DNA of 44,584 bases from a virus. Taxonomy: Duplodnaviria > Heunggongvirae > Uroviricota > Caudoviricetes. Below, piece after piece: positions 29,816 through 30,382 of this stretch. Under the pieces are notes generated by a model. It was not told where the DNA came from. It ran no database searches and saw only the letters and a list, made by a program, of their open reading frames with translations. The translations under genes were made by a program, and so were the position numbers. How positions within the stretch are numbered: the stretch's first letter is position 1; each line of letters starts with the position of its first letter. The DNA is taken from positions 1 to 44,584 of the IMG/VR virus record IMGVR_UViG_2529292883_000001. One strand, 5' to 3'.

Positions 29816-30382
29816 TAGCTAACCAACGAAGCTAAGGTTGGTAATTAAGGAGTTCTCCACGGGTAAGGTGGAGTACGTGCGCCGGACACGGGTGAGCATC
29901 CGGCACTGACAGTTTACTGAAAGGATATTTCCCTGAAAAGTCAGACCATAACGCGAAAGCGCACGGCGAGGTAGCTGGTTCATAGATAGCCTGTCGTTAA
30001 ATTTTCGTCGACCGTGCGCTTCCGGTTGTGGCACTCCGCGAAATGGCGCGGCGGTAAGTATGGCGGGGTTATTCCTTCCCCGTTGAGGACACCGGGTTGT
30101 CAGGTTGACCATACGCTTAAGTGACAACCCCGCTACAACGCCCTCTGTTATCAATTTTCTGGTGACGTTTGGCGGTATCAGTTTTACTCCGTGGCTGCTC
30201 TGCCGCCATTTTTAAAGTGAATTTTGTGATGCGGTGAATGCGGCTAAGCGCACGCGGAACAGTTAAAACCAAAAACAGTGTTATGGGTGGATTCTCTGTA
30301 TCCGGCGTTAATTGTTAACTGGTTAACGTCACCTGGAGGCACCAGGCACCGCATCACAAAACTCATTGTTGAGGGCGCGATA

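Follow-up and report, generated by a model that had tools for sequence, protein, structure and literature searches.

DicF was among the first bacterial regulatory RNAs to be described and inhibits the translation of ftsZ; its gene, dicF, has been known since 1989-1990. According to the literature, DicF pairs with the ftsZ, xylR, pykA and manX mRNAs, and also with pchA in EHEC, and through these mRNAs it blocks cell division and alters metabolism. The dicBF operon has a PL-like promoter that is repressed by DicA (bioRxiv 10.1101/2023.04.14.536235), and several DicF species have been described. The 53-nt form owes its 3' end to Rho-independent termination and its 5' end to RNase E (bioRxiv 10.1101/2023.04.14.536235; PMC9438474). 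A 190-nt species has a 5' end that depends on RNase III (bioRxiv 10.1101/2023.04.14.536235), and a 72-nt species has a 3' end produced by RNase III acting on the full-length RNA (PMC9438474). The RNAs that build up in K-12 have their 3' ends at the DicF terminator, with no longer species detected (bioRxiv 10.1101/2023.04.14.536235). Two other described RNAs are close enough to be compared with the locus reported here: canonical STnc100/PasD, which is found in the late region near Q, the lysis genes and stx (bioRxiv 10.64898/2026.05.13.724894; PMC12370729), and the put RNA of HK022, which consists of two stems over about 70 nt (PMC9378689).

The window analysed here is the whole 44,584-nt stretch of the IMG/VR virus record IMGVR_UViG_2529292883_000001. 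It contains an ORF-free gap of 567 nt (29816-30382), located between a 72-aa ORF (29597-29815) and a downstream gene that starts at the ATG at 30383, not at 30384. An earlier note, made from the sequence letters, had described this gap as a GC-rich non-coding block of ~565 bp with multiple stem-loops in the early-left operon, and had offered three readings: a structured ncRNA, an antitermination element, or what is left of a decayed gene, for instance a sieB-like exclusion gene. The length measured here agrees with that description. Because of a full-length DicF match, the DicB and YdfC flanks and the synteny with K-12, the block is very probably the dicF locus of the dicBF operon in a Qin/CP-933P-type lambdoid prophage, that is, an RNA-processing cassette which is neither a gene nor a gene remnant. 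The dicF core of the block is thus an already known element.

An Rfam search and a covariation analysis across relatives, both suggested in the earlier note, were carried out. The Rfam search of the whole window placed DicF (RF00039) at 30157-30208 on the plus strand, with 71.8 bits (E = 5.3e-14; gathering score 48), and the match covers the model in full (positions 1-52 of 52). The 53-nt form corresponds to 30156-30208, with the terminator stem at 30171-30207 and the T-run at 30209-30213; the GGCGG-26nt-GCCGCC repeat listed earlier is present at 30171-30207 and is this terminator stem. The first of the three readings was therefore the right one, as a DicF gene lies inside the block and the other hairpins belong to the surrounding precursor and leader. 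Two substitutions separate this DicF from that of K-12: an A-to-G change at 30194 in the inner stem, which turns a U-A pair into U-G and keeps the pairing, and a change in the base after the stem, outside the pairing. Save for these two positions, the target-pairing sequence is the same as in K-12 and in the majority of copies.

The gene neighborhood is that of the dicBF operon. The block is downstream of, and on the same strand as, an HTH repressor gene, and opposite to the YdaS/YdaT pair, which is divergent from the repressor gene; this agrees with the placement in the early-left operon. A PaaA2-ParE toxin-antitoxin pair is located between the repressor and the ydfA-type gene, whose product belongs to the DUF1391 (YdfA-type) proteins in Pfam, and a ydfB-like ORF was found at 29397-29567. 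When 29597-30571 was compared by megablast with 5426 complete E. coli genomes, 4756 of them contained matching sequence, the median number of matching places being two. Beneath these matches RefSeq annotates ydfC, dicB and ydfD; for the RefSeq genome records that were inspected, the feature annotation obtained did not list dicF. The K-12 Qin prophage carries ydfA-ydfB-ydfC, a 567-bp spacer and dicB-ydfD-exonuclease, with 96.9% identity over 975 nt. The features of the locus are collected in Table 1.

Table 1. Features of the dicF locus and its flanks (positions in the window; all on the plus strand).
Feature	Position	Strand	Basis
DicA/PaaR2-type HTH repressor gene, upstream	28083-28490	same strand as block (+)	
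ydfC, 72 aa, upstream flank of the block	29597-29815	+	RefSeq 'protein YdfC' under megablast matches; K-12 Qin position
Variable spacer with small hairpins (29822-42, 29852-76, 29881-904)	29816-29945	+	
Long imperfect hairpin, ~27-bp lower stem	29946-30032	+	inverted-repeat search
Conserved 5' domain of the DicF precursor ('pre' module), putatively pseudoknotted	30036-30129	+	alignment, pair counts
Predicted helix P1	30036-40/30047-51	+	
Predicted helix P2a	30052-55/30091-94	+	
Predicted pseudoknot	30058-63/30109-14	+	
Predicted helix P2, variable hairpin	30064-68/30078-82	+	
Predicted helix P3	30095-102/30122-129	+	
Linker, C(C/U)(A/G)CAAC motif and AU-rich single-stranded stretch (AUCAAUUUU)	30130-30155	+	
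DicF sRNA and terminator	30156-30213	+	Rfam RF00039, terminator-like site
STnc100-like structured leader of dicB	30218-30365	+	Rfam sub-threshold, repeats, covariation
Leader closing stem, 19 bp	30218-36/30347-65	+	
Leader internal helix	30306-11/30323-28	+	
Leader 3' hairpin	30332-36/30342-46	+	
dicB Shine-Dalgarno GAGGG	30371-30375	+	
dicB, 62 aa, downstream flank	30383-30571	+	Pfam PF05358, E = 5.7e-39, positions 1-62 of 62; RefSeq

The longest plus-strand ORFs within the block have 36, 36 and 26 aa (GTG, TTG and ATG starts), and dicB has an in-frame GTG extension that reaches into it, so the claim that no plausible plus-strand ORF is present was borne out. The remaining inverted repeats of the earlier list were also recovered (ACCAAC-9nt-GTTGGT at 29822-29842, GCCGGA-12nt-TCCGGC at 29881-29904 and the repeat with 19-nt spacing at 30095-30129). 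The two longest were absent from that list, namely the 19-nt arms at 30218-30236/30347-30365 and a 13-nt core at 29954-29966/30012-30024, the latter being part of the ~27-bp hairpin. The plus strand of the block folds to -222.4 kcal/mol, compared with -183.1 +/- 6.9 for dinucleotide shuffles (z = -5.67), and none of the 100 shuffles was as good. The minus strand gave z = -6.34 against dinucleotide shuffles; it folds about equally well because inverted repeats must do so. The description of the block as GC-rich did not hold: the window as a whole has 50.1% GC and the block 51.0%, a value equalled or exceeded by 44% of windows of 567 nt; relative to the adjoining genes (47.3% and 43.7%), the block is 4-7 points higher.

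Two long helices flank the DicF precursor. In the upstream hairpin the lower stem was kept in all 38 unique variants, while the tip is a hypervariable stretch of ~25 nt that exists in at least six versions unrelated to one another. A distance of 190 nt upstream of the DicF 3' end (30208-30213) corresponds to ~30019-30024, in the 3' arm of this hairpin, and 72 nt counted from the DicF 5' end (30156+71) reach 30227, midway along the 5' arm of the 19-bp leader stem. Since the sizes of the products land in both long helices, both are plausible RNase III substrates. Judging from the K-12 product size, RNase III probably cuts the upstream hairpin at ~30019-30024 to generate the 5' end of the 190-nt species, and by the same kind of count the closing stem of the leader is probably the RNase III site for the 3' end of the 72-nt species. 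For the 5' end of the 53-nt form, we infer an RNase E site in the AU-rich linker before 30156.

A pathway for DicF biogenesis could be proposed from this arrangement. A polycistronic transcript from the PL-like promoter would cross ydfABC into the block, and most transcripts would stop at the intrinsic terminator (30171-30213). An RNase III cut in the upstream hairpin would leave an RNA of ~190 nt, composed of the pseudoknotted 5' domain and DicF, and an RNase E cut in the AU-rich linker would then give the 53-nt, Hfq-dependent DicF. Transcripts that read through the terminator would bear the STnc100-like folded leader, with its 19-bp closing stem as a second RNase III substrate that would yield the 72-nt DicF; the same cut would presumably give a trimmed dicB mRNA. 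A promoter scan of the K-12 dicA-ydfA spacer, done to place a published RNase III coordinate ('813/814'), found no promoter-like site there, and terminators and read-through are absent from the text of the paper with that coordinate. In the minimum-free-energy fold, seven nucleotides of the linker (CGCCCUC, 30139-45) also pair with the Shine-Dalgarno region of dicB (GAGGGCG, 30371-77). This anti-Shine-Dalgarno pairing is not claimed here, because most relatives read GAGGACG while the partner CGCCCUC is unaltered.

The region between the upstream hairpin and the linker corresponds to a conserved 5' domain, which no Rfam family matches. Its fold was derived from an alignment and scored on 92 distinct sequences. 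The helices were paired in 96.3% of the cells, compared with 33-52% in slid controls, and compensatory changes were found, with 7 pairs and 25 cells changed on both sides; among 500 shuffles, none reached the count of doubly changed cells and two reached the count of pairs. Among these, U-A to C-G changes were seen in P2a, in the pseudoknot and, for seven sequences, in P3. The fold is regarded as supported but not proven, because the independent covariation events are few and come mainly from the P1/P7 and the Citrobacter/Salmonella lineages, helix P1 showed no covariation in the 92-sequence alignment, and part of P3 and its loop were fixed by the search pattern used for retrieval. Run on the 92-sequence alignment, RNAalifold offered a partly different pairing of the 3' half (30103-07/30125-29), which was discarded, since its strand is fixed by the pattern and shows no double changes, whereas P3 covaries. 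Inspection of the sequences also revealed no riboswitch-like alternative pairing of the domain with the terminator that was conserved across terminator types. Among 96 unique IMG/VR contexts collected by an exact DicF-core pattern, the segment 30036-30156 was 97-99% identical to the window, even where dicB was 61-70% identical or replaced; this estimate of conservation is biased upward, as the relatives were retrieved by exact patterns inside DicF or the 5' domain.

The 5' domain is not restricted to dicF loci. In a blastn search of phage genomes, the interval of the window at ~30025-30147 was found on its own, with 90% identity in phage cdtI, Stx2c phages, Ayreon and related phages; the identity of the 5' domain was 88.6% in 2H10, 84% in Salmonella phage F1055, 82% in P7 and 77.6% in P1. 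The P1 record (NC_005856) labels its copy, in the ban operon leader, as a 'dicF-like region'. In P1 and P7 the domain starts ~45 nt after the C1-controlled Pban promoters, and in cdtI and 2H10 it is found past the cI repressor gene on the same strand, in cdtI ~290 nt beyond a promoter with 11/12 matches. A pattern scan based on the invariant loop detected 18 loci when one genome per species was used and at least 120 loci in IMG/VR, with hosts in Escherichia, Shigella, Citrobacter, Trabulsiella and Erwinia.

These loci were grouped into 20 clusters, and all 20 have the same order behind the domain, a variable stretch of 15-60 nt and then a terminator hairpin with a T-run, so that an intrinsic terminator lies within about 20-90 nt of the domain. 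The motif C(C/U)(A/G)CAAC stands between the domain and the variable stretch in the representatives of the lambdoid-type clusters, while in the five P1/P7-type clusters it is replaced by other sequence (e.g. CCGAAGUGCG). The variable stretches comprise at least eight unrelated 'seed' sequences, of which DicF is one, and Rfam gave no DicF hit on the cdtI, P1 and P7 versions. Convergent targeting of ftsZ by the seeds was considered as well: when 13 variant seed-plus-terminator sequences were compared by RNAduplex with the translation-initiation region of ftsZ, z ranged from -1.4 to +1.9, DicF itself included, so that this comparison is uninformative on ftsZ pairing. We tentatively propose, with less than even confidence, that the ~95-nt domain is a distinct module, the common 5' scaffold of 'seed-swapped' early-operon sRNAs of which DicF is the sole characterised member. 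Such a scaffold might guide RNase E processing, or might act on the transcribing polymerase at the terminator behind it. Faubladier and Bouche reportedly noted the likeness of 'dicF-like' regions in 1994, and the modular picture may partly be in print already.

Downstream of DicF, the dicB leader resembles STnc100. The match to RF02076 at 30220-30360 reached 38.8 bits (E = 1.2e-6 on 1.2 kb), short of the gathering score of 47, and spans model positions 21-154 of 206. Hits that were likewise sub-threshold were found ahead of terB in P7 (43 bits), ahead of kil in pPE4 (39.1 bits) and ahead of tciA in P1 (33.4 bits). When three canonical STnc100 copies were aligned with the dicF-linked copies and those of P1 and P7, the leader helices were paired in 89.1% of the cells, against 32-42% when slid, and 11 pairs and 36 cells were doubly changed; the covariation analysis thus found compensatory changes here as well as in the 5' domain. 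No terminator was found between 30365 and the dicB start. A mosaic junction is located directly after the closing stem, beyond which dicB, kil-like or other genes are found. On sequence and predicted pairing, the dicB leader is a relative of STnc100 and not a member of the family.

The upstream part of the block is a spacer (29816-29945) with 28-88% identity to relatives, in contrast with 97-99% in the downstream core. Some E. coli loci match in megablast only from window positions ~29836, ~29876 or ~29936 onward. The 19-nt junction at 29836-29854 carries an orphan AAGGAG Shine-Dalgarno sequence in the window, and strain CV261 has a 616-bp insert with two genes at exactly this place. As far as this sequence comparison goes, the junction is an empty 'moron' insertion site.

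Other explanations were weighed against the reading of the block as an RNA-processing cassette. The view that it is a decayed protein gene, either sieB-like or represented by the minus-strand ORF 29819-30154, with hairpins that are incidental, is extremely unlikely. This ORF would encode 111 aa from a TTG start, several phage records annotate a minus-strand 'hypothetical protein' over the same region, and CV261 does carry two real genes at the spacer junction. However, no Pfam family was found for the 111-aa ORF, in 97 close relatives its longest stretch free of stops is anywhere between 40 and 110 aa, so that the frame is not kept, and the annotated minus-strand ORFs differ in extent and length between phages (151, 64, 190 and 68 aa). 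When the two proteins of the CV261 insert were searched against the block with tblastn, no significant match was obtained (E = 0.41), and hence no remnant of such an insert was seen. Within the core, roughly one 5'-domain variant in three has a one-base indel and substitutions occur as compensatory pairs, and the published RNA products account for the full length of the block. The suggestion of a sieB-like remnant was therefore abandoned, and the minus-strand 'hypothetical proteins' over this region are best read as miscalls. Somewhat more weight, though still well short of likely, is given to the possibility that function resides only in DicF and the two RNase III stems, and that the conservation of the 5' domain and the leader reflects recent horizontal spread, with these elements as recombination anchors. 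Mosaic junctions are indeed found at the edges of the modules, upstream at the three positions named above and downstream just past the closing stem, where different genes alternate. Furthermore, most copies, retrieved by exact-pattern search, exceed 97% identity, which makes the effects of selection inseparable from those of recent common ancestry. Against this possibility, the 5' domain is also found at 77-90% identity in P1, P7, cdtI, F1055, Citrobacter, Trabulsiella and Erwinia, where flanks and seeds are unrelated, and the changes in those diverged copies are compensatory. The leader keeps three helices of canonical STnc100 through 11 doubly changed pairs, and the orientation of the modules is always that of transcription.

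Antitermination, in the more specific form of a cis processive antiterminator (put- or nut-like) at 30036-30129 that would modify RNA polymerase and allow read-through of the DicF terminator and of later ones, to dicB, the recombination genes and int/xis, is attractive because a terminator always follows the domain and because the domain is promoter-proximal in several phages. The distances speak for it, with the terminator at about 20-90 nt in all 20 clusters and the promoter ~45 nt (Pban in P1 and P7) or ~290 nt (behind cI in cdtI and 2H10) away. It would also fit that the pseudoknotted fold is backed by covariation, and that no N-like gene was found among the ORFs scanned with Pfam between the repressor and the block, a set that excludes the ydfB-like ORF. 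Nevertheless, this role is improbable on the evidence at hand. Three copies of the 5' domain were compared by blastn-short with the HK022 immunity region, where the put sites are located, and only chance-level matches of 7-13 nt were obtained; the architecture is also unlike put. HK022 has both putL and putR, but in the window the domain is present once, with no copy in the rightward operon. No boxA (CGCTCTTA-like) occurs in the block, the sole match in the window being at 19418 on the minus strand, and the early-left ORFs scanned include no N-like family, so that a lambda-type nut site is not recognizable either. The RNAs that accumulate in K-12 end at the DicF terminator, and the domain lies ~1.9 kb from the repressor gene, where a nearby 5' end needs the RNase III cut. 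The antitermination element of the earlier note thus did not stand as worded, with neither a boxA nor similarity to the HK022 immunity region in the block, but a put-like activity could hold alongside DicF biogenesis.

Taken as a dicF locus, the block indicates that the DicF precursor is built of portable RNA modules, which are found again, with other seeds and other toxic small genes downstream (dicB, kil-like, tciA/terB), in P1-like and other lambdoid phages. This suggests a reusable cassette for making phage sRNAs and for controlling the genes behind them. The practical gain is the correct annotation of the prophage, given that several phage records call spurious minus-strand ORFs over dicF, and the modular observations could matter to both sRNA and phage biologists.

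Comparison with the described systems places the locus as follows. With putL and putR of HK022, the 5' domain shares its nature as a structured RNA acting in cis, its place in an early operon under repressor control in a lambdoid phage with no evident N gene, and its position upstream of terminators and, in P1, P7 and cdtI-type phages, proximal to the promoter; it differs from put in having three or four helices and a pseudoknot over ~95 nt, in a single copy. The dicB leader has in common with STnc100/PasD the GGUGAAU motif, the closing stem, the internal helix, the CCNGG-AGGCA-CCNGG hairpin and compensatory changes. STnc100/PasD, however, is a stand-alone sRNA with its own terminator, the canonical copies ending in a GC hairpin and T-run, whereas the leader lacks one and runs into the ribosome-binding site of dicB; its closing stem has 19 bp instead of ~8 bp, and it is located in the early-left operon and not in the late region. 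Like other 3'-UTR or intra-operonic sRNAs such as SroC, DicF is cut from a polycistronic mRNA, with early termination at the 3' end and RNase E at the 5' end (PMC9438474), but the dicF locus adds an upstream RNase III hairpin, a conserved pseudoknotted domain and a second RNase III stem downstream, as far as these elements are predicted correctly. The P1 'dicF-like region' also consists of the 5' domain (77.6%) followed by a terminator hairpin, just past the Pban promoters, with a different seed and terminator; there, tRNA genes follow the domain, and the STnc100-like element is found 1.2 kb further on, ahead of tciA. The closest counterpart is the dicBF operon of the K-12 Qin prophage, which has the same gene order, spacer length, terminator and upstream same-strand repressor gene, and from which the window differs by the PaaA2-ParE pair between the repressor and ydfA in its immunity region and by the two substitutions in DicF.

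At least eight distinct units, each made of a seed (the variable stretch between the 5' domain and the terminator, of which DicF is one) and a terminator, were found downstream of one shared 5' domain. The unit starting with AGCCACUGCUUUGGCGGUACCAG, for example, is present in cdtI and Stx2c phages, while that starting with AACCCAUGUUGAUUACC is found with other copies of the 5' domain. The cdtI-, P1- and P7-type units, the only types scanned against Rfam, gave no match to DicF. These seed-plus-terminator units can be regarded as candidate uncharacterised phage sRNAs. The enterobacterial 5'-domain sequence was also detected on three contigs of metagenome-assembled genomes (L140, L141 and L146, from genome_contigs) labelled as Bacillota, Veillonella parvula and Collinsella, which are most likely mis-binned contigs of enterobacterial prophages.

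Actinobacillus phage vB_Apl-pPE4 (L127 1998-2442), whose recorded host is Actinobacillus pleuropneumoniae, carries an E. coli-type early region with 81-87% identity, composed of DicA, the 5' domain, the STnc100-like leader, kil and exoVIII. In this phage the DicF-like sRNA unit is tandemly duplicated (2100-2190 and 2193-2283). Its host assignment, or a recent transfer, would merit verification. Tandem copies were also found for canonical STnc100, on the minus strand of one IMG/VR contig (L175), where two copies lie ~480 nt apart, each with its own terminator formed by a GC hairpin and a T-run.

The tip of the probable RNase III hairpin (window 29975-30000) is hypervariable and adjoins the conserved GUCGUUAAAUUU; loci that are elsewhere 97-99% identical carry six or more unrelated versions of it. 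In the linker 5' of DicF, CGCCCUC (30139-30145) is the perfect complement of GAGGGCG (30371-30377), which spans the dicB Shine-Dalgarno sequence, and the minimum-free-energy fold pairs the two. This complementarity may be due to chance, since most relatives have GAGGACG and an unaltered CGCCCUC partner in the linker.

In E. coli CV261 (L002 1720-2380), a 616-bp insert flanked by a 19-nt repeat lies downstream of ydfC and upstream of the probable RNase III hairpin, and encodes two genes, of 136 aa (plus strand) and 77 aa (minus strand). The window retains a single copy of this repeat at 29836-29854, containing an AAGGAG with no ORF after it. The site resembles an empty moron site.

The immunity region of the window includes matches to PaaA2 (Pfam, 1.1e-20) and ParE (Pfam, 1.5e-16), which together with the repressor form a three-gene toxin-antitoxin module of the PaaR2-PaaA2-ParE2 type. 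The toxin-antitoxin genes are located between the repressor and ydfA, heading the dicBF-type operon.

Positions of genes, RNA genes and seed-plus-terminator units in the window and in retrieved comparison sequences (L-numbers)
Feature	Sequence	Position	Strand	Location or support
HTH repressor, PaaA2, ParE (in this order)	window	28083-28994		immunity region
Seed-plus-terminator unit	L124	2600-2676		3' of 5' domain
Seed-plus-terminator units	L143, L149, L150, L166, L180			3' of 5' domain
sok antitoxin RNA	window	22813-22988	-	Rfam, 111 bits
STnc490	window	44145-44268	+	Rfam, 146 bits
Four clustered tRNAs	window	18208-18510	-	Rfam
Additional tRNA	window	34634-34720	-	Rfam
Additional tRNA	window	35712-35784	+	Rfam
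813-aa ORF	window	30850-33291		downstream of ydfD

The ORF that follows ydfD has an acidic, low-complexity middle region. At the homologous position, K-12 is annotated with a truncated "exonuclease" pseudogene, whereas the ORF of the window is intact and far longer.
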